64,000 bases of DNA from the NCBI GenBank assembly GCA_963814375.1, contig CAWFCQ010000001.1, forward strand, positions 1-64,000, in the 5' to 3' direction. Position numbers and translations under genes: made by a program. Numbering within the stretch: the stretch's first letter is position 1; each line of letters starts with the position of its first letter. Source of the stretch: an uncultured Chloroflexia bacterium (lineage in GTDB: Bacteria > Chloroflexota > Limnocylindria > QHBO01). The notes beneath the pieces are model-generated. The model saw nothing but the letters and a program-made list of their open reading frames with translations. It did no database searches and was not told where the DNA came from. Below, one piece after another: positions 8,784-39,451 of this stretch.

Positions 8784-8808
8784 GGCCGAACGCTACTCCA
8801 TCGGTCCC

Positions 8809-10609: not shown

Positions 10610-11836
10610 ATGTCCAACAATGCGGGACAAGGAGCGGGCACCGACCGCGGGCCATTGTCGGACTTGAGGGTTCTCGAGCTGGGGAACCTCATTGCCGGGC
10701 CGTTCGCCGGACGCCTCCTCGCCGACTTCGGCGCCTCCGTGATCAAGGTCGAGCACCCGGAGCGAGGGGACCCGCTTCGCAAGTGGGGCATGACCTGGGA
10801 CGGCACGGACTCGTTGTGGCACCTCGTTCAGTCGCGCGGCAAACAGTCCGTCGCCGCAGATCTCCACGATCCGGCGGACCAGGCGTTTGTCCGGCAGCTG
10901 GCCCTGGAGAGCGACATCCTGATCGAGAACTTCCGGCCGGGACGCCTCGAGGCCTGGAACCTCGATCCGGAGGACCTGATCGCCGCCAATCCGCGACTCG
11001 TCGTGGTGCGAATATCCGGATACGGCCAGACCGGGCCGATGCGGGACCAGCCCGCCTTCGGAACGATCGCCGAGGCGGCGGGTGGACTGCGCTTCATCAC
11101 CGGAGAGCCGGATCGCCCACCCGGCCGCGTCGGCTTGAGCCTGGGAGACTCGATTGCCTCGCTGCATGCCGTGATCGGCGCCCTCATCGCGCTGCACGAG
11201 CGGGCCGCCTCGGGTCGCGGTCAGGTGGTCGACGTCGCGCTGACCGAGGCACTCTTCTCGATGCTCGAGGGCACGCTTCCGGAGTACGCCTACTTCGGCG
11301 CCGTCCGTCAGCGCACCGGCAACATCGCCCACAACTCGGCACCGACGAATGCATATCTCTGCGCCGATGGAGCGCACGTCTGCATCGCCGCCAACACCAC
11401 GGGGCTGTTCCAGGCGCTCTTCCGGCTCATCGGTAGAGATGGCCTCGCCGATGATCCGGAGCTGGCGACCAATGAGGGACGGGTCGCTCGCGCCTCCGAG
11501 CTGGACGAGGCGATCGCCGAGTGGACGCTCGAGAGAACGGTCGAAGAGGTGGTGGCCACGCTGCGGGCAAACCGCGTGCCGGTCAGCGCGATCAACAGCA
11601 TCGCCGAGATCGCCGCCGACCCCCAGTTCCGCGCACGGGAGATGACGGTGGAGGTGGTCGACCAGAGGCTCGATCGGCCGCTGCTCGTTCCTGGCGTCGT
11701 GCCGAAGCTGTCCCGCACGCCGGGGCGCGTGCCGCCCCTTGCTCAGCCGCTCGGCGCCTCCACCGACGCCGTCCGCGAGGCGCTTGCACGCGAGCCGCAG
11801 CCCGCGTCGCGGCGGCACGGCACCGAAGCCAGGTAG
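10610..11836 (+). CDS. Family III CoA-transferase (CaiB/BaiF)
   Basis: PLSDLRVLELGNLIAGPFAGRLLADFGASVIKVE, ENFRPG, SGYGQTGP; TTGACC-N17-TATGCT then ATG 6 nt later. Confidence 0.92.
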   Translation: MSNNAGQGAGTDRGPLSDLRVLELGNLIAGPFAGRLLADFGASVIKVEHPERGDPLRKWGMTWDGTDSLWHLVQSRGKQSVAADLHDPADQAFVRQLALESDILIENFRPGRLEAWNLDPEDLIAANPRLVVVRISGYGQTGPMRDQPAFGTIAEAAGGLRFITGEPDRPPGRVGLSLGDSIASLHAVIGALIALHERAASGRGQVVDVALTEALFSMLEGTLPEYAYFGAVRQRTGNIAHNSAPTNAYLCADGAHVCIAANTTGLFQALFRLIGRDGLADDPELATNEGRVARASELDEAIAEWTLERTVEEVVATLRANRVPVSAINSIAEIAADPQFRAREMTVEVVDQRLDRPLLVPGVVPKLSRTPGRVPPLAQPLGASTDAVREALAREPQPASRRHGTEAR

Positions 11837-11847
11837 GCACCTACAGC

Positions 11848-12819
11848 GTGGCGCTGGTCAATACCTACCGCGGTCCGGTTGACCCCGATGCGCTCGGCCT
11901 GACACTCATCCACGAGCACATCTTCGTGCGCAACCCCGAGCTCGAGACGAACCTGCCTGATCCGGAGTGGAGCGCCGAGCGGGCGGTCGAGGCGGCCGTC
12001 GAAGGACTCACCGAGCTCCACCGGATCGGGGTGCGGACGATCGTCGACTTGACCGTTCCCGGGCTCGGCCGCGACGTGCGGCTCGTTGCCGAGGTCGCCG
12101 ATCGCGTGCCGATCAACATCGTGGCGGCCACGGGCTGGTATACGCCGAATGTCCTCCCCACCTACTTCGGGTTCCACGGTCCCGGGCGAACCATCGACGA
12201 GCCGGAGCCGCTGGTCGAGCTCTTCGTGCGAGACATCCGGGACGGAATCGCGGGGACCTCGGTGCGGGCGGGCATGCTGAAGGTCATGACCGATGCTGAC
12301 GGCATCACTCCCGACGTGGCGCGCGTCATGGCCGCCGCCGCCCTCGCGCATCGCGAGACCGGCGTTTCGGTCACTACGCACTCGCACCCGGCCTCGCGCA
12401 ACGGGCTGGCCCAGCAGGCGTTCCTCCGGGAGCGCGGCGTACCGCCGGACCGCGTCATCATCGGTCACTCCGGCGACAGCGAGGACCTCGACTATCTGCG
12501 ACAGCTCATGGACAACGGATCGACGATCGGGTTCGATCGCTTCGGCATGGAGCACGTGCTGCCCGATGCGCGACGCGTGCCGACGCTGGTCGCGCTGATC
12601 CGGATGGGCTACGCGGATCGAATCGTGCTGTCGCACGATGCCGCGTTCTACAGCCACGTCACGCCGCCGTCATGGCGGGCACGAAACACGCCACGCTGGC
12701 GCATGGACACCATCGTGCGGCACGTCCTTCCCGCGCTGCGGGCGGCCGGCGTGTCATCCAAGGAGATCGACCAGATGCTCATCGGCAACCCACGCCGACT
12801 CCTGGAGGTGACGTCATGA
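11848..12819 (+). CDS. Phosphotriesterase-like lactonase (amidohydrolase superfamily)
   Basis: LGLTLIHEHI, GLGRD, ATGWY, AGMLK (carbamylated Lys position), TTH, GHSGD, LSHD. Confidence 0.9.
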   Translation: MALVNTYRGPVDPDALGLTLIHEHIFVRNPELETNLPDPEWSAERAVEAAVEGLTELHRIGVRTIVDLTVPGLGRDVRLVAEVADRVPINIVAATGWYTPNVLPTYFGFHGPGRTIDEPEPLVELFVRDIRDGIAGTSVRAGMLKVMTDADGITPDVARVMAAAALAHRETGVSVTTHSHPASRNGLAQQAFLRERGVPPDRVIIGHSGDSEDLDYLRQLMDNGSTIGFDRFGMEHVLPDARRVPTLVALIRMGYADRIVLSHDAAFYSHVTPPSWRARNTPRWRMDTIVRHVLPALRAAGVSSKEIDQMLIGNPRRLLEVTS

Positions 12820-13793
12820 GGGCGGCCCTTCTCGTCAAGCCGGGCGAGATCGTGATCGACGACATCCCCGAGCCGGATGTCGGGCCGGAAGACGTCCTGA
12901 TCGCCGTCGGGGGAGTGGGTCTGTGCGGCTCGGACCTGAGCGTGTTCAGCGGCAAGTGGGCGACGCCGGCCTACCCATGGGTGATGGGGCACGAGGCCTT
13001 CGGCACCATCGCGGCCGTGGGCGAGCGTGTGCCCGCCGAGCGGATCGGCGAGACGGTGGTCGTCGAGCCGAACGTGGCCTGCCTGTCATGCGACCAGTGC
13101 GCTCGGGGCCGAACCTCGGCGTGCGTGGCACGGCAATCGGTCGGCATGAATCGCCAGGGGGCGCTGGCGGAGCGGCTCGTCATTCCGAGCCGCCATGCGT
13201 GGGCATTGAACGGAGTGGCGGCGAGCGACCTCGTGTGCGTCGAGCCGACCGCGGTCGTGCTGGCAGCGCTGCGGCGCCTCGGGGCTCCTCTGCCTCCATC
13301 GGCGCTCATCGTTGGTGTCGGGGCGCAGGGGCTGCTGATGACGCTCGCGCTGATCGAGCGTGGGGTTGAGGTCTACGTCCATGACCTGAACGCGGACCGC
13401 GTGACAACCGCGGTCGGCCTCGGAGCTCGGCCGCCGGCCGCGACCTCGGCCAGCCAGCCGTTCGAGCTCGTGGTCGACACGGTCGGCTCGCCGGCATCGG
13501 TCGAGGCCGCGCTCGATCATATTGAGGTGGGCGGGACGCTGCTGCTCCTGGGGCTCGACGGCCGGCCCTTCGAGCTGACAGCCCAGACGCTCGTGCGGCG
13601 CCAGCTCGTCGTGCGGGGATCGCTCACCTACGACCATCCCGGCGACTTCGGTGCGGCCGTCGAGCTGGTTGCCGCCGGCGCGTTTTCGCCCCGGCGCATC
13701 GTCACCGACGAATATCCGCTCGAGCGCTCTCAGGAGGGCTTCGACCGCTCTCCATCGGCTTCGGGGAAGACCTGGATTCGCATCGGCGGCTGA
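12816..13793 (+). CDS. Zn-dependent dehydrogenase (threonine/sorbitol DH-like MDR)
   Basis: GLCGSD, GHE, CxxCxxC..C structural Zn site, GVGAQG. Confidence 0.9.
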   Translation: MRAALLVKPGEIVIDDIPEPDVGPEDVLIAVGGVGLCGSDLSVFSGKWATPAYPWVMGHEAFGTIAAVGERVPAERIGETVVVEPNVACLSCDQCARGRTSACVARQSVGMNRQGALAERLVIPSRHAWALNGVAASDLVCVEPTAVVLAALRRLGAPLPPSALIVGVGAQGLLMTLALIERGVEVYVHDLNADRVTTAVGLGARPPAATSASQPFELVVDTVGSPASVEAALDHIEVGGTLLLLGLDGRPFELTAQTLVRRQLVVRGSLTYDHPGDFGAAVELVAAGAFSPRRIVTDEYPLERSQEGFDRSPSASGKTWIRIGG

Positions 13794-13805
13794 CGGCGCG
13801 AAGCA

Positions 13806-13860
13806 TTGACCCGCGGTTGCACCGTCCCGTATCATAGGCCAGTGTCCAGATATGCGGAAC
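13806..13860 (+). promoter_or_regulatory. TRAP operon promoter with candidate IclR site
   Basis: TTGACC 13806-13811, TATCAT 13830-13835, followed by GTCC-agatatgc-GGAAC. Confidence 0.5.
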
Positions 13861-13963
13861 GCATGAGCCGCGTCAGTCCAGGAATTCAGGACACTTGGTG
13901 CGCCACCTGCGTCGTGGTGGCTGCGGGCTTGTTTCGTCGGTAACGAGCACTGAGGGAGTGACC

Positions 13964-15026
13964 ATGAGCAGGCGACCCCGGATCTTCGTACCCGCACTCG
14001 GCTTGATACTCGTCCTGGCGGCATGCACCGGTGGAGGCTCGAGCGAGGAGCCATCCGCAAGCGAGCCGGGGAGCGCCGAGCCGTCGTCGGCCGCATCGGA
14101 GCCCGTCGCCCAGGAGTTCGAGCTCACCCTGGCGCATAGCTACCAGGACGGACAGCCACAGGTCGACTGCGGCGCCAACATCATCCGCGACAACGTCGAG
14201 GCGGCCGATGTCGGGGTCAGCGTCGAGATCTTCGGCGCCAGCCAGCTCGGCGGTGACGCCGATCGAATCCAGTCGGTCATCGCCGGCGACATCGACATCG
14301 ACATCCAGGGTGCGTCCGCCCTCAGCGCGGTCTACGAGCCGATGAGCGCCGTCGACGGGGCCTTCGTGTTCGACGACAGCGACCACATGTACCAGTACTT
14401 CTCCGGCGAGGCCTCCGATCCGCTGAAGCAGGGCTTCGAGGAAGAGACCGGCGTGCACATCCTCGGCGGATGGAACACGGGCGCTCGCCAGTTCACCGCC
14501 AATGTGCCGATTCGGTCGCCCGCCGACCTGGAAGGGCTCCGCATGCGCTTCCCGCCATCGCCGCAGTTCCTCATGAACGCAGCGGCCATGGGCGCCGAGC
14601 CGGTCGAGGTCGCGTTCGAGGAGCTCTACCTCGCGCTCGAGCAGGGGACCGTGGACGGCCAGGAGAACCCGATCACGAATATCGACGCCAACAACCTCAT
14701 CGAGGTGCAGGACGTCATCAGCCTCTCAGCGCATCAGCTCAGCTCCAACCTGGTCATCATCGGCGAGGTCTGGAACGAGATGAGCACGGAGCAGCAGGAG
14801 GCCCTGGCAGCCGCCGTCGAGGAGGCGATGGTCCAGGAGCCGGAGCTGCGCCGCCACGGCCGAGGAGGAGATCCTCGCCGGCTGGGAGGCCGACGGTGCG
14901 ATCGAGATCGTGGAGGATGTCGACCGCGACGCCTTCCGCGAGATGGCCGAGCCGTACCTGCGTGAGAACTTCACGCCTGAGCAGGTGGAGGTCCTGGACG
15001 CCATTCGGTCCGTCGTGGACGAGTAA
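13964..15026 (+). CDS. dctP: TRAP transporter substrate-binding lipoprotein, one apparent frameshift near 14848
   Basis: Lipobox LAAC, SQLGG, DLEGLRMR, ELYLALEQGTVDGQENP; C-terminus AATAEEEILAGW...RSVVDE* continues in another frame to 15026. Confidence 0.85.
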
Positions 15027-15036
15027 TCTCAGCGCC

Positions 15037-15063
15037 CGGTGCCCGGATCCTCCACGGGCACCG
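15037..15063 (+). other. Intercistronic stem-loop after dctP
   Basis: CGGTGCCCG-N9-CGGGCACCG perfect 9-bp stem with no U-tract. Confidence 0.55.
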
Positions 15064-15118
15064 CGGCGCCTGACTGCGCCCTGATCTGCGGGGGACGACC
15101 CAGCATGTCTCCGGAGGT

Positions 15119-15712
15119 GTGAGCCAGGTGACGGCCCGCGACGCCGCCGATCGTCCTCCCGCCGAGGCGGAGAGCCTGGGGGGTGAGACGAACCCCGAGC
15201 TCCTGCCTCGGCGCGAGCCGTGGCGCACGATCGTGCATGGAATCGGCATCGGCGAGCAGGTCGTCGGGTCGGTGCTGATGCTCGTCGTCCTGGTGCTGGT
15301 GCTGGCCCAGGTCGCGCAGCGCTATGTTCCCGGGTCGTTCGCGTGGACAGGCGAGGTGGCTCGGCTGGCGATGGTATGGGCCACCTTCGTGATGGCCGGG
15401 TACCTCGCCGCATTCGACCGCCACATCGCCATCCACGTCGTCGACTACGTGCTCGCCGGACGCGCGCTGGCGGCGGTCAAGCTGCTCGCTCACATCGTCG
15501 TTCTGGCGACGAGCGTGGCGATGGTGTACGCGACTTATCAGCTCGTCACCGACGACATCGGCCAGGTGACGGCAGCGGCGCGGCTTCCGCTGCTGTGGGT
15601 CAACGCCGTGCCGATCATCGGCTTCTCGCTGGTCGCGCTCCGCGCCGCCCTCGGAATCGTGCTCGTCGATGTCCCGGGCCTTTCGGGGCGCGACCCCGAG
15701 GCGGCGGCATGA
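15119..15712 (+). CDS. dctQ: TRAP transporter small permease
   Basis: 4 TM helices, QVAQRY...WTGEVAR, HIAIHV. Confidence 0.88.
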   Translation: MSQVTARDAADRPPAEAESLGGETNPELLPRREPWRTIVHGIGIGEQVVGSVLMLVVLVLVLAQVAQRYVPGSFAWTGEVARLAMVWATFVMAGYLAAFDRHIAIHVVDYVLAGRALAAVKLLAHIVVLATSVAMVYATYQLVTDDIGQVTAAARLPLLWVNAVPIIGFSLVALRAALGIVLVDVPGLSGRDPEAAA

Positions 15713-16983
15713 GCCTCCCGCTGCTGCTCATCGCGATCCTCGTGCTGTTCCTGCTTCGCGTGCCGATGGCGTTCGCCATCCTCGGGCCGTCGATGATCTA
15801 TCTGCTGGTGGAGGACTACACCCTGCACCTCGGTGTGCGGGTGATCATGCAGGGGATCAACAGCTGGCCGCTGTTGGCCGTTCCGCTGTTCATCATGGTT
15901 GGGATCGTTGCGACGCGATCGGAGATCGCCGACCGACTCTACGACGCTGCTCTCCTCCTGCTCGGGCCGCTGCGCGCCGGCCTCGCCTACGTGAATATCG
16001 CGGTGAGCCTCGGCTTCTCGTGGATGAGCGGCGCCGCACTGGCGGATGCGGCCGGGATCGGCGCGATCGAGGTCGGCCACATGCGGAAGAAGGGCTATCC
16101 CGCGGAATTCTCCGTGGGGTTGAGCGCAAGCTCCGCGCTGATCAGCCCGATCATGCCGCCCAGCATCCCGGCGGTCGTGTACGCGTCGGTGGCGGCCGTG
16201 TCGACTGGCGCGCTCTTTGCCGCCGCCGTCATCCCGGCGTTTCTCATGACGGCGGCGCTCGTGGCGACCGTCTTCATATGGTCGAGGCGAAGGCCCGACC
16301 TCGTCGGGGACCCCTACAGCTGGGCTGCGACGCGGCGGGCCATCATCCGAGCGATCCCGCCATTGGGTGCACCGATCATCATCCTCGGCGGCATCCTCGG
16401 CGGATTCTTCACGCCGACCGAAGCGGCTGGCATCGGCGCGCTCTACATGCTGCTCCTGGCCCTGTCGTACCGCACGATGCGGATGCGAGACATCGCGCTC
16501 ATCTTCCGCGATACCGCCGTGATCAGCGGTCAGATCATGATCATCATCGGGGCATCCGCGCTGCTCAGCTGGATCCTGGCGCGTGAGCAGGTCCCGCAGA
16601 CCGTCGCGGAGAGCCTCCTGTCACTCACGGACAATCCCGTTGTCTTCCTCATGATCGTGAATGTCCTGCTCCTCGTGTGCGGGATGCTGCTCGAGCCGAC
16701 CTCGGCACTGCTCATCATCACTCCGATTCTCCTTCCGGTGGCTGTTCAGTTCGGCGTCGATCCGGTGCATCTCGGGTCGGTCATCATCTTCAACCTCATG
16801 ATCGGGTTGTTGACTCCTCCGATGGGCGGCGTCGCGTTCGTCCTGAGTTCGGTGACGGGCATTCCCGTCGAGCGGGTGTTCCGGGGCGCCGCGATCTACC
16901 TGCCGGCCATGATCCTGGTGCTCCTGCTCATCACCTACATTCCGGCTCTCACCCTGTGGCTGCCGCAGGCGATCGGGCTATGA
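15709..16983 (+). CDS. dctM: TRAP transporter large permease
   Basis: LLAVPLF, SGAALAD, IMPPSIP, FTPTEA, IGLLTPPMG. Confidence 0.93.
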   Translation: MSLPLLLIAILVLFLLRVPMAFAILGPSMIYLLVEDYTLHLGVRVIMQGINSWPLLAVPLFIMVGIVATRSEIADRLYDAALLLLGPLRAGLAYVNIAVSLGFSWMSGAALADAAGIGAIEVGHMRKKGYPAEFSVGLSASSALISPIMPPSIPAVVYASVAAVSTGALFAAAVIPAFLMTAALVATVFIWSRRRPDLVGDPYSWAATRRAIIRAIPPLGAPIIILGGILGGFFTPTEAAGIGALYMLLLALSYRTMRMRDIALIFRDTAVISGQIMIIIGASALLSWILAREQVPQTVAESLLSLTDNPVVFLMIVNVLLLVCGMLLEPTSALLIITPILLPVAVQFGVDPVHLGSVIIFNLMIGLLTPPMGGVAFVLSSVTGIPVERVFRGAAIYLPAMILVLLLITYIPALTLWLPQAIGL

Positions 16984-17000
16984 CACAGGCGTCCTGAGAG

Positions 17001-17741
17001 ATGTCCGTTCTGGAGAAGGCGAGCGATCTCATCGACTGCCTCGGGCGGGCCGGGGAGCCTGTGACGCTCGGCTACGTGCGCGAGGCGCTGGCCATGCCGA
17101 AGTCGTCGACGCACCGGCTGCTGAGCGAGCTGGCGGCCCTGGGCATCGTTCGTCGCACCGAGGACGGCCGCTACTCGCTCGGGCCGCGCCTGCTGTACTG
17201 GGGCGAAGCCGCGGCCGATACCTTCGACCTGCGCGCGGTCGCCGAGCAGCCGATGCGCCGCCTCCGCGACGACGTCGGCGAGAGCGTCCACCTCTACATT
17301 CGCGAGCACGACACCCGCATCTGCATCGCGGCCGTCGAGGGTCGCCACGAGCTGCGCCCGTTCATTCAGCTCGGCAGGCCCCTTCCGCTGCGCGCCGGGG
17401 CCGCCGGAAAACTGCTGCTGGCGTTCGCGGATCGCGATGTCCAGGAGCTCGAGCTGGCACGCGCGCTGGCGGATGCGAAGACGATGCCCAAGGCGCCAGG
17501 TGCCCGCCTCGCCGAGCAGCTCCGGCAGATCGCCGCGCAGCGCTGGGCGACGTCAGTCGGTGAGCGCGAGGAGGGCGTCTCCGCGGCAGCGACGCCGGTC
17601 GTGGACTCGCGAGACCGCGTGGTGGCCGCCCTGTGCATCTCGGCTCCCACCACCCGCCTCGGCGAAGATGCACTGGGTCGGATGCGCGCCCCGCTGGAGA
17701 CCGGGGCCGCGGAGATCAGTGCGCTGCTGAAGCGCGGCTGA
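17001..17741 (+). CDS. IclR family transcriptional regulator
   Basis: PKSSTHRLL HTH, GESVHL, GKLLLAF, GEREEG. Confidence 0.92.
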   Translation: MSVLEKASDLIDCLGRAGEPVTLGYVREALAMPKSSTHRLLSELAALGIVRRTEDGRYSLGPRLLYWGEAAADTFDLRAVAEQPMRRLRDDVGESVHLYIREHDTRICIAAVEGRHELRPFIQLGRPLPLRAGAAGKLLLAFADRDVQELELARALADAKTMPKAPGARLAEQLRQIAAQRWATSVGEREEGVSAAATPVVDSRDRVVAALCISAPTTRLGEDALGRMRAPLETGAAEISALLKRG

Positions 17742-18501: not shown

Positions 18502-19910
18502 CAGTCCGCGAGCGTCCCGTAGAACTCGCCGAAAAGCTCCTCCTCCGAGGGACGGTCCTCGGGGGTCGGCCGGCTCACCCAGGTGACGTTCATGTAGTGC
18601 TTGAGGTGGATGTTCTCCGAGGTGATGTTGCCGCCCCACGTTCCGCATCCGAGGCTCGAGGTCATCGGCATCCCGTTGGTGAACGAGCCCGCGTTCGCTT
18701 TCGACTGTGCCTGACGCACCATGATCCGGCTCACCGGCGCCAGCTGAGCCAGGCGGTCGATGTGATCGTCGTCGAAGGAGTAGATGCCGCACGAGTGGCC
18801 CTTGCCGCCCACCTCGTAGATCGCCGCCACCTTCTCGAGCGCCTCGTCGTAGCCGGAGTAGCGGAACATCGACAGGACGACGCCGAGCTTCTCCGAGCTG
18901 AATGGGTTGTGCACGCCGATCTCGCTCTGCTCGACGAGGAAGAAGCGGCGATCGGGCGCGATCTCGAACCCCGCCTTCTCGGCAAGGGCCTGCGCCGAGA
19001 CCGCGATCGTGTCGGGAGTCCGATGGCCCTCATCGTCCCAGTAAATGGCTCGCAGGCGCTCGGCCTCCTCCGCCGTGGTGAGGTGTCCGCCCTCTTCCAC
19101 CAGGCAGTCGCGCAGGGCGTCGTAGATCGTTGTCTCGACGATGAGATTGCCGTCGGCCGAGCACCCGGATCCGAAGTCGGAGGTCTTGCTGAGGCGCGTG
19201 TTGCGCGCCGCATCGGCGACGTCAGCAGTCTCATCGATGACCATGGTCGAGTTGCCCGCACCGACGCCGTAGGCCGGGGTGCCCGAGCTGTACGCCGCCT
19301 TGACCATGTCTCGGCCGCCGGTCGCCTGGACCATGTCGGCCCGGGTCATCAGGTACTGGGCGGCCGGGATGCTCGGCCGCTCGAGACATTGGATGAGGTC
19401 AACCGGGGCGCCCTCGCGCTCCAGCACGCGGCGCATGATCTCGACCGTCTCGCGGGTCGTGGCCTTGCTCCGCGGATGGGGCGAGAAGATGACCGCGTCG
19501 CGGCACTTGATGGCGAAGAGGCCGACGCCCGGTGGGGTCAGCTCGGGGTTCGTCGTCGGCACAAGCGAGGCGATCAGGCCGACCGGCTTGGCGTACTTGA
19601 CGATGCCCCGCTCGGGTAGCTCCTCGATGACGCCGATGCTCCGCTGGCGCAGGACGTCGCGCAGGATGCCCATCACCTTGAAGCGCTTCGAGACGCGGCT
19701 CTCGGGATCGCCGATACCACTCTCGTCGACGCCCATCTGCGCCAGGCGCTTGAAGGTGGTTTCGTTGGCGACGGCCCACGCCAGCGCCTGGCAGAGCCGA
19801 TCGACCTGCTCCTGTGTCGCGCCCCCGAAGGCGGCCAGCGCGGCGCGCCCACGTTTCACCAGCTCGTCGACATGCTCGGTCTCTTCAGCGGTAATCGGTC
19901 GAGGAGGCAT
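18501..19910 (-). CDS. CoA-acylating aldehyde dehydrogenase (SauS/EutE-like)
   Basis: PTTNP, ATGG..MVKAAYSSG, GVGAGN, catalytic Cys in SGCSA, EKLG, LGCGTWGGNITSENI. Confidence 0.88.
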   Translation of the reverse strand: MPPRPITAEETEHVDELVKRGRAALAAFGGATQEQVDRLCQALAWAVANETTFKRLAQMGVDESGIGDPESRVSKRFKVMGILRDVLRQRSIGVIEELPERGIVKYAKPVGLIASLVPTTNPELTPPGVGLFAIKCRDAVIFSPHPRSKATTRETVEIMRRVLEREGAPVDLIQCLERPSIPAAQYLMTRADMVQATGGRDMVKAAYSSGTPAYGVGAGNSTMVIDETADVADAARNTRLSKTSDFGSGCSADGNLIVETTIYDALRDCLVEEGGHLTTAEEAERLRAIYWDDEGHRTPDTIAVSAQALAEKAGFEIAPDRRFFLVEQSEIGVHNPFSSEKLGVVLSMFRYSGYDEALEKVAAIYEVGGKGHSCGIYSFDDDHIDRLAQLAPVSRIMVRQAQSKANAGSFTNGMPMTSSLGCGTWGGNITSENIHLKHYMNVTWVSRPTPEDRPSEEELFGEFYGTLAD

Positions 19911-19961
19911 GTTTCGTTTCCACTATTGCGAAGTGCCGGCCCACTCTCCGGGAACGCTGCG

Positions 19962-20065
19962 AGCCTATGACCGGCCCCATGGGCTGTCAAGACGCCCCCA
20001 CTTGACACCGCCGAGCGAGGGCGACTAGGTTCCTGATAGCGGACTCGATGGTCCGTTATTCGGAA
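19962..20065. promoter_or_regulatory. Divergent sigma70 promoters with two TCC-N7-GGA candidate IclR operators
   Basis: Minus strand TTGACA (19985-19990) N17 TAGGCT (19962-19967); plus strand TTGACA 20002-20007 N18 TAGGTT; TTCCtgatagcGGAC 20030-20044 and GTCCgttattcGGAA 20051-20065. Confidence 0.6.
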
Positions 20066-20119
20066 TCCGGGTCAGCGACACGCGGGCCCATCGAGGCGCG
20101 TACCCGTCTGGAGGTGGGC

Positions 20120-21826
20120 ATGCAACCCACGGTCGCCGACCACGTCGCCCGGTTCCTCACGGACCGTGGTGTCGAGATCGTCTTCGGCCTGTGCGGTCAC
20201 ACCAACATCTCGGTTCTCGCCGCGCTCGAGCGCGCCGGGAGCCCGCGCTTCGTCACGACCCGTCACGAGCAGGTCGCGGCCCATGCCGCCGACGGCTACG
20301 CGCGCGCCTCCGGACGGCCGGGCGTCGTCCTTCTGCACGTCGGCCCGGGCATGACCAACGCGGCAACCGGTGTCGCGACCGCCTCGTTCGACTCCGTTCC
20401 GCTCCTCGTCATCGCCGGTGATGTCCCCTCGTACTTCGAGGGCCGCGGGCCTCACCAGGAGCTCAACCTGCGCCGTGACGCCGACCAGACCTCGCTGTAC
20501 GAGCCCTTCGTGAAGCGCTCATGGCGGGTTCGGCGCGCCGACCAGGTGCCCCGCGTTCTGGCACGCGCCTGGGATCTCGCCCTGGCGGGCCGGCCCGGGC
20601 CAACCCTCGTGTCGGTGCCGATGGACATCCTCGCCGAGCCGTTCGAGGCCGATGTCGTGCCCGCCTCGCCGCTCGAGCCGCCGACGATCACGGCGGCGGT
20701 CGCGGGCCGCATCGCCCACGAGCTGCGCGCCGCCGAGCGGCCGCTGATCCTCGCCGGCGGCGGCACTCGTCGCGCGGCAGCCGACGTTCGGGCGTTGGCG
20801 GAGCTCAGTGGCGCTCCTGTCGCCCACACCCTGATGGGGACCGGCGTGCTGCCGCCGGATCACCCGCAGCTGCTGGGCATGATCGGCTTCTGGGGATCGC
20901 CCACCGCGAATCGTCTCGCCAGCCAGGCCGATGTGATCCTCGCGATCGGCACCCGCTTCCCGGAGACGGACAGCAGCAGCTGGGAGCACGGCGTGACGTT
21001 CGCTATCCCGCCCACCCGACTGATCCATGTCGACATCGACCCCGGCGAGCCCGGCCGCAGCTATCCGACCGCCATCGCCGCGGCAGCGGACGCCGCCCTG
21101 GCGATGCGCGCGATCGCCGACGCGTACGGGGAGGCGACCCCGGAGCGGGGCCACGACTGGGCGCGACTTCGCGAGGAACGCGAGCAGTTTCTGGCGGCGA
21201 GCCGCGAGAACGCCTCGTCGTCCGAGTTCCCGCTGCTGCCCGAGCGCATCCTGGCCGACGTTCGCCGCGCCATCCCGGACGCCATCCTCGTGACCGACGT
21301 GGGGTGGAACAAGAACGGCGTCGGGCAGCAGTACCCGGTCGACTCGCCGGACTCGTTCCTCACGCCCGGCGGCTTCTCGACAATGGGGTTCGGGCCGGCC
21401 GCCGTCATCGGCGTTGCCGCCGCCAACACCGGACGCCCTGCCGTCGCGCTCATCGGGGACGGTGCGTTCGGCTCGAACCCGAGCGTCGTCGCAACGGCGA
21501 TGGAGATGGGGATCGCGCCGGTGTGGGTCGTGATGAACAACGCCGCGTTCGGCACGATCGCCGGCCTCGAGCGCAAGCACTACGGCACCGGCTTCGGCTG
21601 CGAGTTCGAGGCCGATGGGAGCTCGTACACGCCCGACTTCGCCGCGATCTCCCGCGCCTGCGGCGCGGTTGGCATGACCGTCGAATCTGCCGATGAGCTC
21701 GACTCGGCACTTCGTGATGCCCTGCAAGCCGGGCGCCCGACCGTCATCGACGTCCCGATGCGCAACACGCCGGTTCTGACGCCCGGCGAGTGGGACATCG
21801 AGCGCATCTACCAGGTGGCTCGATGA
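20120..21826 (+). CDS. Thiamine-diphosphate-dependent enzyme (ALS/IolD/CDH superfamily)
   Basis: FGLCGHTN, RHEQ..AHAADGYAR, GPGMTN, GDGAF...NN ThDP motif; GGAGG RBS. Confidence 0.9.
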   Translation: MQPTVADHVARFLTDRGVEIVFGLCGHTNISVLAALERAGSPRFVTTRHEQVAAHAADGYARASGRPGVVLLHVGPGMTNAATGVATASFDSVPLLVIAGDVPSYFEGRGPHQELNLRRDADQTSLYEPFVKRSWRVRRADQVPRVLARAWDLALAGRPGPTLVSVPMDILAEPFEADVVPASPLEPPTITAAVAGRIAHELRAAERPLILAGGGTRRAAADVRALAELSGAPVAHTLMGTGVLPPDHPQLLGMIGFWGSPTANRLASQADVILAIGTRFPETDSSSWEHGVTFAIPPTRLIHVDIDPGEPGRSYPTAIAAAADAALAMRAIADAYGEATPERGHDWARLREEREQFLAASRENASSSEFPLLPERILADVRRAIPDAILVTDVGWNKNGVGQQYPVDSPDSFLTPGGFSTMGFGPAAVIGVAAANTGRPAVALIGDGAFGSNPSVVATAMEMGIAPVWVVMNNAAFGTIAGLERKHYGTGFGCEFEADGSSYTPDFAAISRACGAVGMTVESADELDSALRDALQAGRPTVIDVPMRNTPVLTPGEWDIERIYQVAR

Positions 21827-22659
21827 CGGAACCCTCGCGACCCCGCGCCCACAGCGGATCCGGCGCCGGGCAGGCGCATCGGTCCGGTGCATGGTCGACG
21901 GCGATCACGGCGACCACCGACGATCGAGTCTTCGTCCGCGGCGTCGCCCTCGACGAGGCGATCGGCCGCGACCCGTTCCCTGCCATGCTGCTTCGGCTCT
22001 GGCGCGGCGACGAGGGCACGATTGAGGAGGCGGAGCTGCTCGGCGCCTGCCTGGTGGCGTCGATCGACCACGGTCCGCTGTCGCCATCGGCGCTCGTCAC
22101 GCGGACGATTGCCTCGACCCGTGCGAAGCCGATGAGCGGGCTGGCAGGCGGCATCCTCGCCTTCGGTGACCTCCACGGCGCCGTGGTCAGCCGGGCCATG
22201 CGGATCCTGGCCAGCGCGCCGGCCGAGGGCAGCCTCGACGCGTGGGCCGACGAGACGTTCGAAGCCGAGCGCGCCGCAGGCGGCCGCCTGCCGGGCATCG
22301 GGCATCGCTGGCACGACCACGATCAGCGTGCAGAACGGCTCCTCGAGGTGGCCGCGAGGCTCGCCCCGGATGCACGGCACGAAGCCGCGGTGCGGGCTCT
22401 GGCCGCGCGCGTCGGCGCGCACTCGGGGAAGCGCATTCCGGTCAACATCGACGGAGCGCTCGCCGTCGCCCTCACCGCGCTGCGGCTCGACCCCGCCTAC
22501 GGCGACTTCCTCTTCGCGATCGCGCGGAGCTTCGGGCTCGCCGCCCACTTCGTCGAGGAGCAGGCCCGTGAGCGGCCGATGCGGATGATCGACCCGACGG
22601 CCGCGGAATACGACGGGGCGGCGGTCACGGGCCTCGAGCCACAGGAGGCAGACACATGA
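21823..22659 (+). CDS. Citryl-CoA lyase-like (citrate synthase fold) protein
   Basis: WSTAIT...[37 protein letters not shown]. Confidence 0.8.
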
Positions 22660-23029
22660 AGGTCCGGCTGATCTCGCCCTTCCGGGATGCCGAGCAGATC
22701 TGGATCGGTCTCGACGAACCCGGGATGCGGCGGAAGGTGTTCCGCTTCGTGTCGCCGGAATCGGCTCCGAGGAGTTCATGGCGGGCATCACTGTCTTCGA
22801 GCCGGGCGAGTCGAGCTCCTACCACGTCCACGACGAGTCCGAGGAGATCAATCTCGTGCATCGAGGGCATCCGGGCATCCTCGTCTCCGAGGGTGAGGAG
22901 GCGGAGTTCGAGACCGGCCACGCCATGTGGGTGCCCAAGGGCGTCCATCACCAGCATCGGAACACCGGCACCACCCCGCTCAAGCTGCTCTGGGTGTACA
23001 CGCCGCAGGCTCCACTTCCCCAGACTTAG
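22656..23029 (+). CDS. Cupin domain protein, apparent frameshift near 22762
   Basis: GGAGG RBS + MKVRLISP...FVSPE, then in another frame [22 protein letters not shown]...HQHRN (cupin H-H-E-H). Confidence 0.75.
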
Positions 23030-23063
23030 GAACTCACGGTCGCAACGCGCGGAAGGGGCACTG

Positions 23064-25166
23064 ATGGACTCGCCATACATCGCCTTGGCGCTCGCGGCAT
23101 CGGTCGCCGGCCTGTCGCTGGCGGCCTACTTCGCGCGTCGAGTGGCCGCGGCCCCTCCGGGCAACGAGCGGATGGTCGAGCTCATGGCCGCGATCCGAGA
23201 GGGAGCGATGGCGTTCCTCCGGCGGGAATATGCGGCCCTTGGCGTGTTCGTTGCGATTGTTGCGGCACTGATCTTCGCCATCCCGGAGTACCGGCTCTAC
23301 GGTTCGCTCGCGTACGTCCTTGGCGCGCTCGCTTCTGCCGGCGCGGGATTCATCGGCATGCGCGTCGCAACGGCCGCCAACGCGCGCACCGCGGAGGCCG
23401 CGCGCGTCGGAGGGACGGCGCTCGCATTGCCGCTCGCTTTCCGCGCCGGCGCGGTGATGGGGTTCTGCGTGGCGGGCCTCGGACTGCTCGGCCTGACGGC
23501 GCTTCTTTACCTGTTCGTCACCGTGATCGCGGCGCCGAATTCGACGTCACTGATCGTGGCGTTCGGCCTGGGCGCAAGCAGCATCGCCCTCTTTGCGCGG
23601 GTCGGTGGTGGCATCTACACCAAGGCCGCAGACGTGGGTGCGGACCTGGTCGGCAAGGTGGAGGCGGGAATTCCGGAGGATGACCCTCGCAATCCTGCTG
23701 TGATCGCCGACAACGTGGGCGATAACGTGGGTGACGTCGCCGGCATGGGCGCCGACCTGTTCGAATCGTATGTTGGATCGATCGTGGCACCGGTGGTGCT
23801 CGGGGCCGTGATCTTCGGGGGGACCAGTGATCCGGGCGCGGGGATCGTCTTCCCGCTCGCGATCGCGGCAGCGGGCCTGCTGGCGAGCATCGTCGGCGCC
23901 TTCCTGGTTCGCGTCGAGGACCGCTCGAACCTGGGAGCCGCCCTCCGCCGCGGCACGTGGGTCGCGGCCGCGCTCAGCGCGGTCGGCACGGTCGCACTGT
24001 CAGTGCTCATCCTCGGGCCGGTGGCCCAGGTCGAGCAGCCATTGTTCATCGCGGGCGCGATCATCAGCGGCCTGCTCGCTGGCGTCGCGATCGGATGGCT
24101 CAGCGAGTACTTCACGTCCGACCGATACGGCCCGGTCCGGCACATCGCCGAGCAGGGGAGATCCGGCTCCGCGACGGTCATCCTCGGCGGCCTCGCGACC
24201 GGCATGCGTTCGACCGCCCCGAGCGTCGGGGTCATCGTCGTCGCGATCGCGGTGGCCCACGTGCTCGGAAGCATGGCCATCCCAGGTGCCGACAGCGCCG
24301 GGATCTACGGGATCGCCCTGGCGGCCGTTGGCATGCTGTCCATCACGGCGATCACCGTCAGCGTCGACGCGTACGGCCCGATCGCCGACAACGCCGGGGG
24401 AATCGCGCAGATGGCCGGCCTCCCCGCCGAGGTCCGGCGCGACACCGATGCGCTGGACTCGCTCGGCAACACGACCGCGGCGATTGCCAAGGGTTTCGCC
24501 ATCGGATCGGCCGCCCTCACCGCGCTGGCGCTGTTCCGCAGCTTCACGGAAACGGCGAATGCCGCACTCCGCGAGGCGGGTGAGGGCCTGATCATGCTGG
24601 ACGTCAACGACGTGGCAGTCACGGTGGGACTGCTCATTGGCGCGATGCTCCCGTTCCTGTTCGCGGCGATGACGATCGACTCCGTGGGACGCGCGGCGGC
24701 CGCGATGATCGCCGAGGTGAGACGCCAGTTCGCCGAGATTCCCGGCCTTCGGGATGGCCGGCCAGGAGTCCACCCCGACTACACCCGATGCGTCGACATC
24801 AGCACCGCCGCGGCCCTGCGTGAGATGGTGGCGCCCGGAGCCCTGGCGGTGGTCACGCCCCTCGTGATCGGCTTCGTGAGCCTTCAGGCCCTGGGCGGGT
24901 TCCTCGTTGGCTCGCTGGTCACCGGCTTCCTGCTCGCCATCTTCATGGCCAACGCCGGCGGCGCCTGGGACAACGCGAAGAAGTTCGTCGAGGCGGGCAA
25001 CCTGGGCGGCAAGGGCGGCGAGGCACACCACGCCACGGTCGTCGGCGATACGGTCGGTGACCCGCTGAAGGACACGGCCGGACCGTCCATGAACATCCTG
25101 ATCAAGCTGCTCAGCATCGTGTCGCTCATCGCCGTGCCGGCATTCGTCGGATTTCGCCCGTTCTGA
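23064..25166 (+). CDS. hppA: Membrane-integral ion-translocating pyrophosphatase (K+-dependent type, probably Na+-PPase)
   Basis: [50 protein letters not shown]; the 836-aa ORF in the track is a fusion caused by the cupin frameshift. Confidence 0.93.
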
Positions 25167-26684: not shown

Positions 26685-27160
26685 GCCGTCCGCGGCTCGG
26701 GCTCGCGGCTGCGCAGCCGGAGGATCGGGATCTCGCGATCGGTCTTCTCGAGGTACTTCGGGTACTCCGGTGCCTCCTCGGCCAGCCGCTTCCAGGCCGC
26801 GTCCAGTTCGGCTCCGGCGAGCGTCTCGGCTTCGATGTCCTCCCGCCGACCGCCGTGGAACTCGATCGTCGCGTGCGGATCCCCGGCCAGGTTGTGCAGC
26901 CAGTCCGGTTGCCGTGCAGCCCCGGCCAACGATGCGACCACCAGCCAGGCATCCGGCCCGTCCTCGAGAAAGCCGAGGATTGCGTATCGAGTCTTGCCTG
27001 ACCTGGCGCCGCGGGTCTCCAGCAGCAGCGTCGGGATGCCACCGCCGGTCTTGTTCGTGCGCCGCCGGAACATCCCCGGCGTGAATCGGCTCAGGAGGTG
27101 AACGACGAAGCGCGGAAACCGAACGCCGCGAGTTCCATCGGGCGGCACGATCACGGCCAT
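26681..27160 (-). CDS. Deazaflavin-dependent nitroreductase family protein
   Basis: LLLETRGARSGKTR, ASLAGAARQPDWLHNL, Y..KTDREIP. Confidence 0.88.
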   Translation of the reverse strand: MAVIVPPDGTRGVRFPRFVVHLLSRFTPGMFRRRTNKTGGGIPTLLLETRGARSGKTRYAILGFLEDGPDAWLVVASLAGAARQPDWLHNLAGDPHATIEFHGGRREDIEAETLAGAELDAAWKRLAEEAPEYPKYLEKTDREIPILRLRSREPEPRTA

Positions 27161-39390: not shown

Positions 39391-39395
39391 TCTTT

Positions 39396-39451
39396 CGTAC
39401 GCTGTAAGATTGGGTGACGCCAAGTTACGTCTTACAGCGTAAGATTGTCAA
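39396..39451. promoter_or_regulatory. TetR operators and promoter for the MDR gene
   Basis: CGTACgctGTAAG 39396-39408, CTTACagcGTAAG 39431-39443; minus-strand TTGACA (39446-39451) N18 TAACTT. Confidence 0.75.

Follow-up and report, generated by a model that had tools for sequence, protein, structure and literature searches.

We propose that the gene cluster at 10610-23029 is under IclR control and serves the O2-independent breakdown of quinate or of a closely related hydroaromatic compound, a reading to which we assign a probability of roughly 0.58. The cluster lies in the window, by which we mean the whole 64,000-nt stretch of DNA analysed, and comprises 12 closely packed genes, from a CoA-transferase III to a cupin, recognized by Pfam and NCBIfam profile matches. 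The genes, the operator-like boxes and the adjoining H+-PPase gene are:

10610-11836, + strand: family III CoA-transferase (CoAT), CoA_transf_3 family, 408 aa; Pfam CoA_transf_3, 396 bits
11848-12819, + strand: putative phosphotriesterase-like lactonase (PLL), PTE family, 323 aa; Pfam PTE, 260 bits
12816-13793, + strand: Zn-dependent dehydrogenase (Zn-ADH), polyol type, 325 aa; Pfam ADH_N and ADH_zinc_N
13844-13859, + strand: operator-like box GTCCAGATATGCGGAA, upstream of dctP
13964-14965, + strand: DctP, TRAP solute-binding protein; Pfam DctP
15128-15712, + strand: DctQ, TRAP small membrane subunit; Pfam DctQ
15709-16983, + strand: DctM, TRAP large membrane subunit; Pfam DctM, 344 bits; 4-nt overlap with dctQ
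17001-17741, + strand: IclR-family regulator 1; Pfam HTH_IclR and IclR_C
17716-18501, - strand: IclR-family regulator 2 (IclR2); Pfam HTH_IclR and IclR_C; coupled to ALDH
18501-19910, - strand: acylating aldehyde dehydrogenase (ALDH), 469 aa; NCBIfam SauS, 477.5 bits
20030-20065: two operator-like boxes, GTCCGCTATCAGGAA (- strand) and GTCCGTTATTCGGAA (+ strand), in the ALDH/ThDP divergent promoter
20120-21826, + strand: AHAS-like ThDP enzyme, 568 aa; Pfam TPP_enzyme_N, M and C
21823-22659, + strand: citryl-CoA-lyase-like (CCL-like) protein, Citrate_synt C-domain, 278 aa; PDB 6hxp
22656-23029, + strand: small metal cupin, frameshifted; Cupin_2 relatives of about 123 aa
23064-25166, + strand: H+-PPase HppA, neighbour gene

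Every family named in the initial annotation was found in place with Pfam and NCBIfam, and the translational coupling it described is visible as 4-nt ATGA overlaps at the PTE/ADH, DctQ/DctM, ThDP/CCL and CCL/cupin junctions and as a 1-nt overlap of the IclR2 start, at 18501, with the ALDH stop. It had also listed HppA and a cupin among the genes of the locus. HppA is not a member: none of the 80 genome loci seeded with the ThDP enzyme has it beside the ThDP gene, and neither does any of the 22 metagenome loci that were seeded with the PLL and span at least 5 kb. In this assembly the cupin has lost one nucleotide between 22759 and 22760, judged against three related loci (L001, L002, L005), and the resulting frameshift gives a single 836-aa ORF that reaches into HppA; intact Cupin_2 orthologues are present in L001 and L006. 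Apart from these two genes, the scheme of import, alcohol oxidation, ThDP-dependent C-C cleavage of a cyclic hydroxy-acid, conversion of aldehyde to acyl-CoA and release of acetyl-CoA fits the comparative evidence in general form.

The co-occurrence in other genomes on which that scheme depended is found: the full 12-gene set, without HppA, recurs in 8 of the 80 genome loci (L001-3, L005-8 and L037, with rearranged gene order in L006-L008 and L037) and in 12 of those 22 metagenome loci. Strains with the core include Aneurinibacillus terranovensis DSM 18919 and Shouchella oshimensis DSM 18940. Across the wider family, individual steps are carried by alternative genes. An acylating ALDH is present in 62/80 genome loci and a non-acylating ALDH plus CoA-transferase III in 9/80, both only in L031, and one of the two routes occurs in 52 of the 53 ‘full’ loci, defined as those flanked by 6 kb or more on each side. 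Similarly, a CCL-like gene (52/80) and an HMG-CoA-lyase-family gene (8/80; the three of these eight that were tested score 296-326 bits, above the cut-off of 246) are never found together, nor are a cupin (13/80) and an AP_endonuc_2 TIM barrel (30/80) in any of the 80 loci. These three non-homologous swaps, of ALDH route, lyase and cupin or TIM barrel, define the chemistry of the steps.

The CCL-like protein, ThDP enzyme, ALDH, PLL and Zn-ADH all retain their catalytic motifs, and no curated NCBIfam equivalog covers the first three of these proteins. The ThDP enzyme carries the RHEQ Glu and GDG-X24-NN motifs, scores 356 bits against TIGR00118 (cut-off 538), has the length of most homologues listed (568 aa) and is only 41% identical to a paralogue in the same genome; we propose that it is the ring opener, acting on 3-dehydroquinate or an isomer thereof. 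The ALDH, which has the GSGC cysteine motif, scores below the SauS cut-off of 600, with AdhE (359 bits), EutE-type (327) and the SucD structure PDB 8cei (281) behind, and copies 61-72% identical to it adjoin the ThDP gene across phyla; its proposed role is to turn the ring-opened aldehyde into a CoA thioester. For the CCL-like protein, a short protein of the citrate-synthase fold that matches PDB 6hxp (‘Citryl-CoA lyase’) with 121 bits and shares the aligned His (LHG), His (GHR) and Asp (NID) motifs with the chains compared, we propose a lyase function on 3-hydroxy-3-carboxyacyl-CoA, and for the cupin a role as ketol isomerase or dehydratase that readies the ring for cleavage. The Zn-ADH, with both catalytic and structural Zn motifs and RspB and sorbitol dehydrogenases as its best solved relatives, is proposed to be a quinate 3-dehydrogenase, the analogue of the shikimate/quinate dehydrogenase (SDH) family enzyme. 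The nearest NCBIfam models of the CoA-transferase are dicarboxylate CoA-transferases, none reaching its cut-off, and a CoA-transferase III adjoins the non-acylating ALDH in eight loci that lack the acylating one; the proposed role of the enzyme is probably to re-activate a free tricarboxylic (homocitrate-like) acid to its CoA thioester. The putative PLL lactonase, with HxH, K, H, H and D metal-ligand motifs and PDB 4if2 (‘phosphotriesterase homology protein’, 290 bits) as best solved relative, would belong to the upper, substrate-supplying section of the pathway.

From gene context we infer a pathway of six steps. The acid would be imported by DctPQM (step 1) and oxidized by the Zn-dehydrogenase to 3-dehydroquinate (DHQ; step 2), and the ketol would be readied by the cupin, as an IolI-like ketol isomerase or IolE-like dehydratase, a part that the AP_endonuc_2 TIM barrel would take in other lineages (step 3). 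The AHAS-like ThDP enzyme would break the C3-C4 bond beside the carbonyl and open the ring, leaving an aldehyde that retains the quinate C1(OH)(COO-) centre (step 4). The acylating ALDH would convert the -CH2-CHO end to a CoA thioester, which, as a tertiary hydroxy-carboxylate, would be a citryl-CoA analogue (step 5), and the citryl-CoA-lyase-like enzyme would split it into acetyl-CoA and a 2-oxoacid (step 6). DHQ and ‘homocitrate semialdehyde’ are, by our own arithmetic, isomers (C7H10O6), so that the product would be homocitryl-CoA, yielding acetyl-CoA and 2-oxoglutarate; this is the most economical version, and its net reaction would take quinate, 2 NAD+ and CoA to acetyl-CoA, 2-oxoglutarate and 2 NADH. 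In a conceivable variant, direct alpha-ketol cleavage would yield a dialdehyde, and the end product would be 4-hydroxy-2-oxoglutarate or the corresponding semialdehyde in place of 2-oxoglutarate. The model has no O2-requiring step, and among the records with the core are ones titled Thermoanaerobacterium sp., Clostridiales bacterium and Bacterium UASB270 (L066, L074, L078).

The choice of substrate comes from the company these genes keep. A type I or II 3-dehydroquinase (DHQase) occurs in 31 of the 80 ThDP-seeded loci, in 24 of them in-operon (no more than 300 nt from a core gene, on the same strand), and an SDH-family gene in 19; the two genes that were checked score above the NCBIfam cut-offs (aroD 209 vs 139, aroE 285 vs 200). 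The operon of a Bacillus sp. (L038), for example, reads CCL-ALDH-DHQase I-ThDP-cupin-CoAT-MFS-IclR, and that of L050 ALDH-CCL-ThDP-TIM-DHQase II-DctPQM. Relatives of the window's upper module are found in eight metagenome loci with DctQM, an SDH-family dehydrogenase, DctP, PTE and TetR, seven of which encode a QsuB/QuiC1-type two-domain dehydroshikimate dehydratase (DSD) and one of which (L102) also has a DHQase II; such DSD-type loci contain the SDH-family gene and no Zn-ADH match. The window DctP is 61-68% identical to its counterparts in DSD-SDH-PTE quinate clusters (including L102 and L113) and the window PLL 56-61% identical to PTE proteins of eight classical, DSD-type quinate/shikimate clusters (56-69% for the two jointly), which ties the upper module to quinate, and we propose quinate or a close derivative as the DctP ligand. 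Dehydroquinase, SDH and upper-module context thus point to quinate or 3-dehydroquinate.

The same chemical logic might be applied to another alicyclic or branched hydroxy-acid or lactone, with the dehydroquinate link limited to the proteobacterial and Bacillota versions, and this we consider unlikely. The window cluster has neither a dehydroquinase nor an SDH-family gene, as is true of its closest relatives except L006, and the 89%-complete genome shows neither DHQase I nor DHQase II and a single AroE-like gene, which lies on a different contig. The L006 dehydroquinase, the only adjacent one in the window's ThDP clade, lies 3.6 kb off and is encoded on the opposite strand, and the far end of that locus has aroG/aroB-like genes; it may therefore be biosynthetic. 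The lactonase is superfluous in the quinate model, DctP is weakly similar to solved TRAP binding proteins (best 113 bits), and proteobacterial TRAP proteins adjoining the core are only 26-32% identical to the window's DctP, which speaks against quinate for the window. The window's ThDP clade (10 sequences) is separate, and in the family tree it is sister to the clades with most dehydroquinase links. Against a different substrate stand the identical core gene set, the DctP and PTE relatives within quinate clusters, and four loci (L061, L106, L088, L121) whose TRAP, IclR and CCL proteins are 64-83% identical to those of the window while the ThDP enzyme is only 50-52% identical. In L061 that enzyme falls in the other clade, and L061 and L106 have the TIM barrel; modules are thus interchangeable, window-like TRAP, IclR and CCL genes occurring with a distant ThDP enzyme. 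L061 also has an in-operon DHQase II, but a DHQ-synthase gene then follows. Elsewhere in the family, neither a cupin nor a TIM barrel is present in 20 of the 53 full loci (mostly Acidobacteriota), and 28 of the 53 lack both dehydroquinase and SDH, so that such loci may have a different step 3 or even another substrate.

It is less plausible still that the ThDP enzyme is a 2-oxoacid decarboxylase acting on a 4-hydroxy-4-carboxy-2-oxoacid, in a module downstream of aromatisation. For example, 4-carboxy-4-hydroxy-2-oxoadipate from protocatechuate meta-cleavage would give citrate semialdehyde, the ALDH citryl-CoA, and the CCL-like protein acetyl-CoA and oxaloacetate. Among NCBIfam models, a 2-oxoacid decarboxylase subfamily ranks second for the ThDP enzyme (347 bits, short of the cut-off of 500), the minimal Acidobacteriota sets of ThDP enzyme, ALDH and CCL-like or HMG-CoA-lyase-like protein would be complete for a substrate of this kind (an MFS transporter is present in the annotated ones, L011, L017 and L049), some betaproteobacterial loci include a dehydroshikimate dehydratase, and the ADH and lactonase pair presumably resembles LigC/LigI. 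Yet no ring-cleavage dioxygenase was seen among the annotated loci, the core occurs in the Thermoanaerobacterium, Clostridiales and UASB270 records named above, the 24 in-operon dehydroquinases beside the ThDP gene argue against this route, and the swap of cupin and TIM barrel would be left without explanation.

That CoAT-PLL-ADH-TRAP and ALDH-ThDP-CCL-cupin are unrelated operons, neighbours by chance, appears very improbable. Upper and lower genes are on different promoters and gene order varies among relatives, but the two sets remain neighbours in at least four different gene arrangements and with ThDP enzymes of either clade, and relatives have the same operator-like box ahead of CoAT, dctP, CCL and the ALDH/ThDP pair. 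The pattern GTCC-N7-8-GGAA occurs six times in the whole window against 5.97 expected, and is thus not enriched window-wide, but three of the six copies (13844-13859, 20030-20044 on the - strand and 20051-20065) fall within the 379 nt of two cluster promoters, with a chance of about 4e-6 by our own arithmetic. The boxes that the initial annotation had noted at the TRAP and ALDH/ThDP divergent promoters are real, and orthologous promoters have the same box in L001, L002, L003, L005, L006, L037 and L061: the one upstream of dctP is conserved in L001 and L002, and those of the divergent promoter occupy the same place in L001, L002, L003, L005 and L006. A degenerate box with two mismatches lies directly upstream of the window's CoA-transferase gene. 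A sulfoacetate/sulfoacetaldehyde route, in which the ALDH would resemble SauS and the ThDP enzyme Xsc, is hardly credible, since, although SauS is the best NCBIfam model of the ALDH, the ThDP enzyme scores 266 bits against the Xsc subfamily model and TauE-family genes occur in 4/80 loci, the SauS and Xsc (620) cut-offs are both missed and the CCL-like or HMG-CoA-lyase step and the dehydroquinase, SDH and DSD context are unaccounted for.

As the initial annotation had surmised, this gene set matches no pathway for which we found a description, and the literature searched describes no O2-free, ThDP-dependent ring-opening route for quinate. If our reading of the locus as one for quinate is true, a soil bacterium imports this plant acid and uses a vitamin-B1 enzyme, and not oxygen, to open the six-carbon ring.

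The gene set described in the initial annotation is present in the window (69% G+C), with two corrections: the cupin gene is frameshifted, and the H+-pyrophosphatase gene falls outside the cluster. Open reading frames were picked by third-position G+C and family matches; four of the junctions within the cluster are ATGA overlaps, and a fifth is a 1-nt overlap.

Genes of the cluster and the gene that follows it (coordinates, strand, assignment)
10610–11836, + strand, CoA-transferase III (family match)
11848–12819, + strand, PTE-family lactonase, PLL (Pfam PTE)
12816–13793, + strand, Zn-dehydrogenase (family match)
13964–14965, + strand, DctP (Pfam DctP)
15128–15712, + strand, DctQ (Pfam DctQ)
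15709–16983, + strand, DctM (Pfam DctM)
17001–17741, + strand, first IclR (family match)
17716–18501, − strand, second IclR (family match)
18501–19910, − strand, acylating aldehyde dehydrogenase, ALDH (family match)
20120–21826, + strand, ThDP enzyme (three ThDP domains)
21823–22659, + strand, short citrate-synthase-fold, citryl-CoA-lyase-like (CCL-like) protein (family match)
22656–23029, + strand, cupin (frameshifted)
23064–25166, + strand, H+-pyrophosphatase HppA (34 nt past the cupin)

HppA, initially counted as a member, is a neighbour that lies outside the cluster, and we dropped it because no relative of it sits beside the ThDP gene in any of the 80 genome loci seeded with the ThDP enzyme or the 22 lactonase-seeded metagenome loci that are 5 kb or longer. 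The cupin gene, initially read as intact, has its start at 22656, preceded by a good ribosome-binding site, but compared with three orthologues it lacks 1 nt between 22759 and 22760, which throws it out of frame; an 836-aa ORF that would fuse it to HppA was discarded as a frameshift artefact of reading. Sequencing runs, none of RNA among those listed, covered at most 0.12 of the stretch, in contigs that were short or came from relatives; one relative's contig, from a soil run, shows a C after 22759, and a 151-nt contig that is otherwise identical carries an additional C after 23042. Several other genes of the window look fragmented or truncated (49977–51283, 51656–52276, 52283–53185 and 55969–56562), among them an Amidohydro_3 gene in two ORFs, a partial APH gene, an MFS gene matching the last three quarters of its model and a response regulator without the first 26 model positions. 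These fragmented genes, together with the additional C in the otherwise identical short-read contig, suggest indel errors in the assembly, and given the C differences between contigs an assembly indel is no less likely than a real pseudogene to account for the cupin deletion.

The TCC-Nx-GGA boxes noted initially can be refined to GTCC-N7-8-GGAA, the centre being rich in A/T. Across the window six such boxes occur where 5.97 are expected, so there is no overall enrichment; three of the six fall within the 379 nt that make up the promoter of dctP and the divergent promoter between the ALDH and ThDP genes, for which our own arithmetic gives a chance of about 4 × 10^-6. The same box occurs upstream of the ThDP gene, dctP, the CoA-transferase gene or the CCL-like gene in seven of the genome loci (L001, L002, L003, L005, L006, L037 and L061), and such conservation is the footprint that would be expected of a shared IclR-type operator.

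Beyond the cluster, the window holds some further arrangements of its own. An ABC-2 exporter cassette (6880–10454, − strand; ATPase 9540–10454, permease 8809–9543, then a HisKA_3 kinase and a LuxR-type response regulator) lies immediately upstream of, and divergent to, the cluster. Two similar divergent pairs about 3 kb apart (38425–40146 and 41268–43119), each a Zn-dehydrogenase of the ADH_zinc_N_2 type (− strand) with a TetR gene (TetR_C_1, + strand), look like a tandem duplication, and two genes of the F420H2-dependent quinone reductase/deazaflavin-dependent nitroreductase family (26681–27160 and 29537–30013, both − strand) stand on either side of a beta-lactamase-family gene (28579–29532).

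Seeding neighbourhoods with the ThDP enzyme, one genome per species, bore out the association of these genes: the whole window set recurs in eight of the 80 loci, in at least four gene orders, seven of them in Chloroflexota MAGs and one in Acidimicrobiales. The loci were searched by targeted tblastn with the window proteins and with proteins from the loci themselves, and 17 of the 80 were annotated with Pfam; single-linkage ORF clustering, which this search replaced, was uninformative because antisense ORFs in high-GC DNA fused everything into one component. An acylating ALDH 61–72% identical to that of the window accompanies the ThDP gene in 62 of the 80 loci and a CCL-like gene does so in 52, an association that spans Acidobacteriota, Pseudomonadota, Gemmatimonadota, Bacillota, Planctomycetota and others.

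Three swaps between non-homologous genes in these loci speak to the nature of the pathway steps. First, the acylating ALDH gives way to a non-acylating ALDH plus CoA-transferase III in nine of the 80 loci, the two arrangements meeting only in L031, and 52 of the 53 loci that extend 6 kb or more to both sides carry one CoA-thioester route, which suggests a step from an aldehyde to a CoA thioester. Second, the CCL-like gene is exchanged for an HMG-CoA-lyase-family gene (eight of 80 loci, never both; the three tested score 296–326 bits, above the NCBIfam cut-off of 246), which points to a retro-Claisen cleavage of a 3-hydroxy-3-substituted acyl-CoA to acetyl-CoA and a keto compound. Third, a cupin (13 of 80) alternates with an AP_endonuc_2 TIM barrel (30 of 80), again never together, so that a metal-dependent isomerase or dehydratase probably accompanies the ThDP step. 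The nearest solved relatives include small sugar isomerases and KdgF for the cupin and IolI (35 bits) for the TIM barrel, weak matches that do not distinguish isomerase from dehydratase. CoA-transferase III accompanies the ThDP route only; where the ALDH is non-acylating it would clearly supply the thioester, and in the window, alongside an acylating ALDH, it may rescue hydrolysed thioester.

The ThDP enzyme itself may also be exchanged. In four loci (L061, L106, L088 and L121) the TRAP, IclR and CCL-like proteins are 64–83% identical to those of the window but the ThDP enzyme is only 50–52% identical, and this mixing of window-like modules with a divergent enzyme suggests that two ThDP clades are used interchangeably. 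The L061 enzyme belongs to another clade in the tree; both L061 and L106 have the TIM barrel, and in L061 a type II 3-dehydroquinase gene overlaps it.

The window ThDP enzyme has the activating Glu (Glu50, in RHEQ) and the GDG-X(24–27)-NN cofactor motif (here GDG-X24-NN, residues 446–476) of AHAS in its three ThDP domains. These are features of the whole superfamily and no proof of AHAS function, and the enzyme scores 356.2 bits against the TIGR00118 trusted cut-off of 538. No curated NCBIfam model of the June 2026 release claims it, and no equivalog of that release claims the ALDH or the CCL-like protein. Among solved structures the ThDP enzyme comes closest to AHAS (254 bits) and BbmA (245 bits), with cyclohexanedione hydrolase at 138 bits, and the sole other ThDP family member of the same genome is 41% identical and far outside the family in the tree. 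All 120 homologue clusters listed are at least 79% identical to the window enzyme and are mostly annotated as ‘acetolactate synthase’ or not at all, which suggests a large and very conserved family. In one Rhodospirillales MAG (L034:8612–11761) the acylating ALDH and the ThDP enzyme share a single 1049-aa open frame, which a fusion or a missed stop might explain.

The window ALDH is of the CoA-acylating AdhE/EutE/SucD type; its closest curated model is SauS, at 477.5 bits against the NF047625 cut-off of 600. The CCL-like protein is nearest to the Hydrogenobacter citryl-CoA lyase (6hxp, 121 bits) and lies below every NCBIfam citryl-CoA-lyase cut-off (at best 154.2 bits against 212, for NF004869). 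Its H118 (LHG), H161 (GHR) and D210 (NID) line up with both 6hxp and citrate synthase chains, at the positions of the LHG His, GHR His and xxD Asp that we take to be the catalytic residues of the citrate synthase fold.

Gene context points to quinate as the substrate along two independent lines. Among the 80 genome loci, 31 contain a type I or II 3-dehydroquinase, 24 of these within 300 nt of a core gene and on the same strand, and 19 contain a dehydrogenase of the shikimate/quinate (SDH) family. Three operons illustrate the arrangement.

Operons combining core genes with dehydroquinase (DHQase), in gene order
L038 (Bacillus sp.): CCL, ALDH, DHQase I, ThDP, cupin, CoA-transferase, MFS, IclR
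L050 (betaproteobacterial locus): ALDH, CCL, ThDP, TIM, DHQase II, DctPQM
L066 (Thermoanaerobacterium sp.): DHQase I, ThDP, cupin, TctCBA, SDH, SDH

Some betaproteobacterial loci also have a QuiC1-type dehydroshikimate dehydratase. Separately, a second AP_endonuc_2 TIM gene (14 of 80 loci) and an HPPD-like (Glyoxalase_5) gene (13 of 80) adjoin in L041, L042, L050, L053–L056, L064, L072, L080 and other betaproteobacterial loci, a pair that looks like a split two-domain dehydroshikimate dehydratase.

The second line comes from the metagenome loci seeded with the window lactonase, of which, at 5 kb or more, 12 of 22 are of the window type and eight are classical quinate/shikimate clusters (L102, L107, L108, L112, L113, L116, L119 and L124). 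The order in the latter is DctQ, DctM, SDH-family dehydrogenase, DctP, PTE, TetR; a two-domain dehydroshikimate dehydratase is encoded in seven of them, the remaining locus being too short to judge, and L102 (664–8531) has DHQase II in addition. Their DctP proteins are 61–68% identical to that of the window (blastp) and their PTE proteins 56–61%, and since such close relatives sit in classical clusters, the transporter and lactonase of the window appear to belong to an ‘upper’ module for quinate/shikimate. Where the classical clusters have the SDH-family enzyme, the window has the Zn-dehydrogenase, a polyol/RspB-type protein in which both zinc motifs are present.

DctP, DctQ and DctM are matched by Pfam on adjacent genes, as in a complete TRAP system, and DctP scores at best 113 bits against solved TRAP binding proteins, too low to infer a ligand. 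The lactonase (Pfam PTE, 259.9 bits; 290 bits to PDB 4if2) has the motifs IHEHIF, MLKVM, THSH, IGHSG and SHDA, which presumably supply the binuclear-metal ligands of the family (HxH, carboxylated Lys, His, His, Asp). As it is linked to both the aromatising and the ThDP versions we place it upstream, where it is predicted to hydrolyse a lactone or ester to the acid that is transported or oxidised; quinide, chlorogenate-type esters and homocitrate lactone are guesses at its substrate. The lactonase is a fixed member of the eight classical clusters, and we know of no lactonase step in quinate catabolism.

Neither type of dehydroquinase is found in the window cluster or in the 89%-complete genome, which fits quinate over shikimate as the substrate, yet weakens the direct link; in the tree, moreover, the window ThDP clade is sister to the clades that hold most of the dehydroquinase links. 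In two relatives of the window type the cluster sits among genes of shikimate biosynthesis: DAHP synthase, an AroK/AroB-like gene and DHQase II in L006 (88–3012 and 16524–17126), and DHQase II and DHQ synthase in L061 (8602–11174). Taken together, the first reading of a TRAP-fed catabolic locus, possibly with ThDP-dependent ring opening, stands in part and can now be made specific, with context naming quinate/dehydroquinate as the probable substrate; HppA and an intact cupin are what it loses. We put the probability of a ThDP ring opening of this substrate at roughly 0.58.

How the ring might be opened can be sketched from the structure of the substrate. ThDP enzymes cleave beside carbonyls, and because C1 of quinate bears both a hydroxyl and a carboxylate, a cut between C3 and C4 of 3-dehydroquinate (DHQ) would leave C3-C2-C1 as OHC-CH2-C(OH)(COO−)-R. 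Oxidised to the thioester, this fragment would be an analogue of citryl-CoA, which is what a citryl-CoA-lyase-like or HMG-CoA-lyase-like enzyme would split. The closest precedent for the ring-opening steps is the use of IolE or IolI followed by IolD on inositol. The 5-hydroxyl could be lost in either of two ways: an IolE-like dehydration could precede hydrolysis of the dione, or a ketol shift could come first, with the ThDP intermediate then losing water as in phosphoketolase. Both would yield ‘homocitrate semialdehyde’, an isomer of DHQ (C7H10O6), which the acylating ALDH would convert to homocitryl-CoA; the citryl-CoA-lyase-like enzyme (elsewhere the HMG-CoA-lyase-like one) would then release acetyl-CoA and 2-oxoglutarate with no further enzymes. 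This end of the route matches the small conserved gene set. We offer the complete scheme, an O2-independent, non-aromatising route for quinate and shikimate by way of homocitryl-CoA, as a tentative proposal, perhaps one chance in three of being right.

A direct cut of DHQ by the ThDP enzyme is a possible variant. It would give a dialdehyde, with 4-hydroxy-2-oxoglutarate or its semialdehyde as the 2-oxoacid, and would need more enzymes; 20 of the 53 full loci have neither cupin nor TIM barrel, which favours either this variant or a distant gene.

Among known systems, the homocitryl-CoA scheme most resembles myo-inositol catabolism, in which the dehydrogenase IolG, the AP_endonuc_2 dehydratase IolE or isomerase IolI, the ThDP hydrolase IolD and the cupin isomerase IolB take part. 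Both would convert a cyclitol to a ketone, rearrange it with a metal TIM barrel or cupin and open it to an aldehyde-acid with an AHAS-superfamily ThDP enzyme without O2. The likeness would be one of mechanism only: IolD is not among the best 25 of 52 NCBIfam hits of the window ThDP enzyme, where AHAS and decarboxylase models score best, and the set of IolD with IolG, IolE, IolB, IolC and IolJ does not match the cluster, which contains no kinase or aldolase. The proposed substrate also differs in its tertiary hydroxy-carboxylate, and an acylating ALDH and citryl-CoA-lyase-like cleavage would replace the kinase and aldolase.

Classical quinate/shikimate catabolism runs through the QuiA/QsuD dehydrogenase, the dehydroquinase QsuC and the dehydroshikimate dehydratase QsuB/QuiC to ring cleavage of protocatechuate. 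It shares the proposed substrate and first oxidation with our scheme, DctP and PLL relatives lie inside such clusters, and many loci with the ThDP core also have dehydroquinase and an SDH-family dehydrogenase. In contrast, no dehydroquinase, dehydroshikimate dehydratase or SDH-family/PQQ quinate dehydrogenase Pfam was found among the window genes tested, and the model opens the ring at the level of dehydroquinate, with neither aromatisation nor an oxygenase.

The H. thermophilus citryl-CoA lyase and the citrate synthase/ATP-citrate lyase fold offer a parallel for the final step, where acetyl-CoA would be released by retro-Claisen cleavage of a 3-hydroxy-3-carboxyacyl-CoA; the CCL-like protein differs in being catabolic and ThDP-linked, whereas that lyase serves the reductive TCA cycle, and in its proposed product, 2-oxoglutarate rather than oxaloacetate. 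Azoarcus cyclohexane-1,2-dione hydrolase (2pgn) likewise belongs to the ThDP enzymes of the AHAS superfamily and cleaves an alicyclic ring anaerobically, giving an aldehyde-acid, but it is a much weaker match than AHAS and differs in substrate and operon context. In sulfoacetate metabolism SauS and Xsc form a comparable pair, an acylating ALDH acting on an anionic X-CH2-CHO aldehyde and an AHAS-like ThDP enzyme, although scores fall under the cut-offs and no sulfonate context was found. Oxalyl-CoA or 2-hydroxyacyl-CoA-lyase chemistry was set aside, as HACL/OXC chains reach 156–166 bits against 254 for AHAS and such chemistry leaves the swap between ALDH and ALDH plus CoA-transferase unexplained.

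In the literature searched, to which most subscription journals do not belong, we found no description of ThDP-dependent dehydroquinate cleavage, of the window gene set or of homocitryl-CoA. The cluster is assembled from known families and would work by an inositol-like ring opening, with a new downstream logic and on a different, ecologically major substrate class. Few plant-derived acids enter soil in greater abundance than quinate and shikimate, whether free or in the form of chlorogenic acids. To our knowledge, textbooks give a single bacterial route for them, by aromatisation to protocatechuate and subsequent O2-dependent opening of its ring. The quinate reading lends itself to direct testing, as substrates are commercially available and cultured strains carry the core. 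If true, it would provide a redox-simple route of three to four enzymes from dehydroquinate to acetyl-CoA and a TCA-cycle 2-oxoacid, a new reaction type for ThDP ring-opening enzymes beside IolD and cyclohexanedione hydrolase, and biocatalysis parts for making homocitrate-type building blocks from quinate. It would also assign a function to a ThDP family now annotated as ‘acetolactate synthase’ and to orphan short citrate-synthase-like proteins. Fermentation of hydroaromatic plant acids was reportedly described in the early 1990s, its pathway then unknown; the route proposed here, if true, would occur widely, in soil Chloroflexota, Acidobacteriota, Betaproteobacteria, Bacillota and anaerobes, would give quinate and shikimate an anaerobic fate, and would explain how fermenters use such acids without aromatic intermediates.
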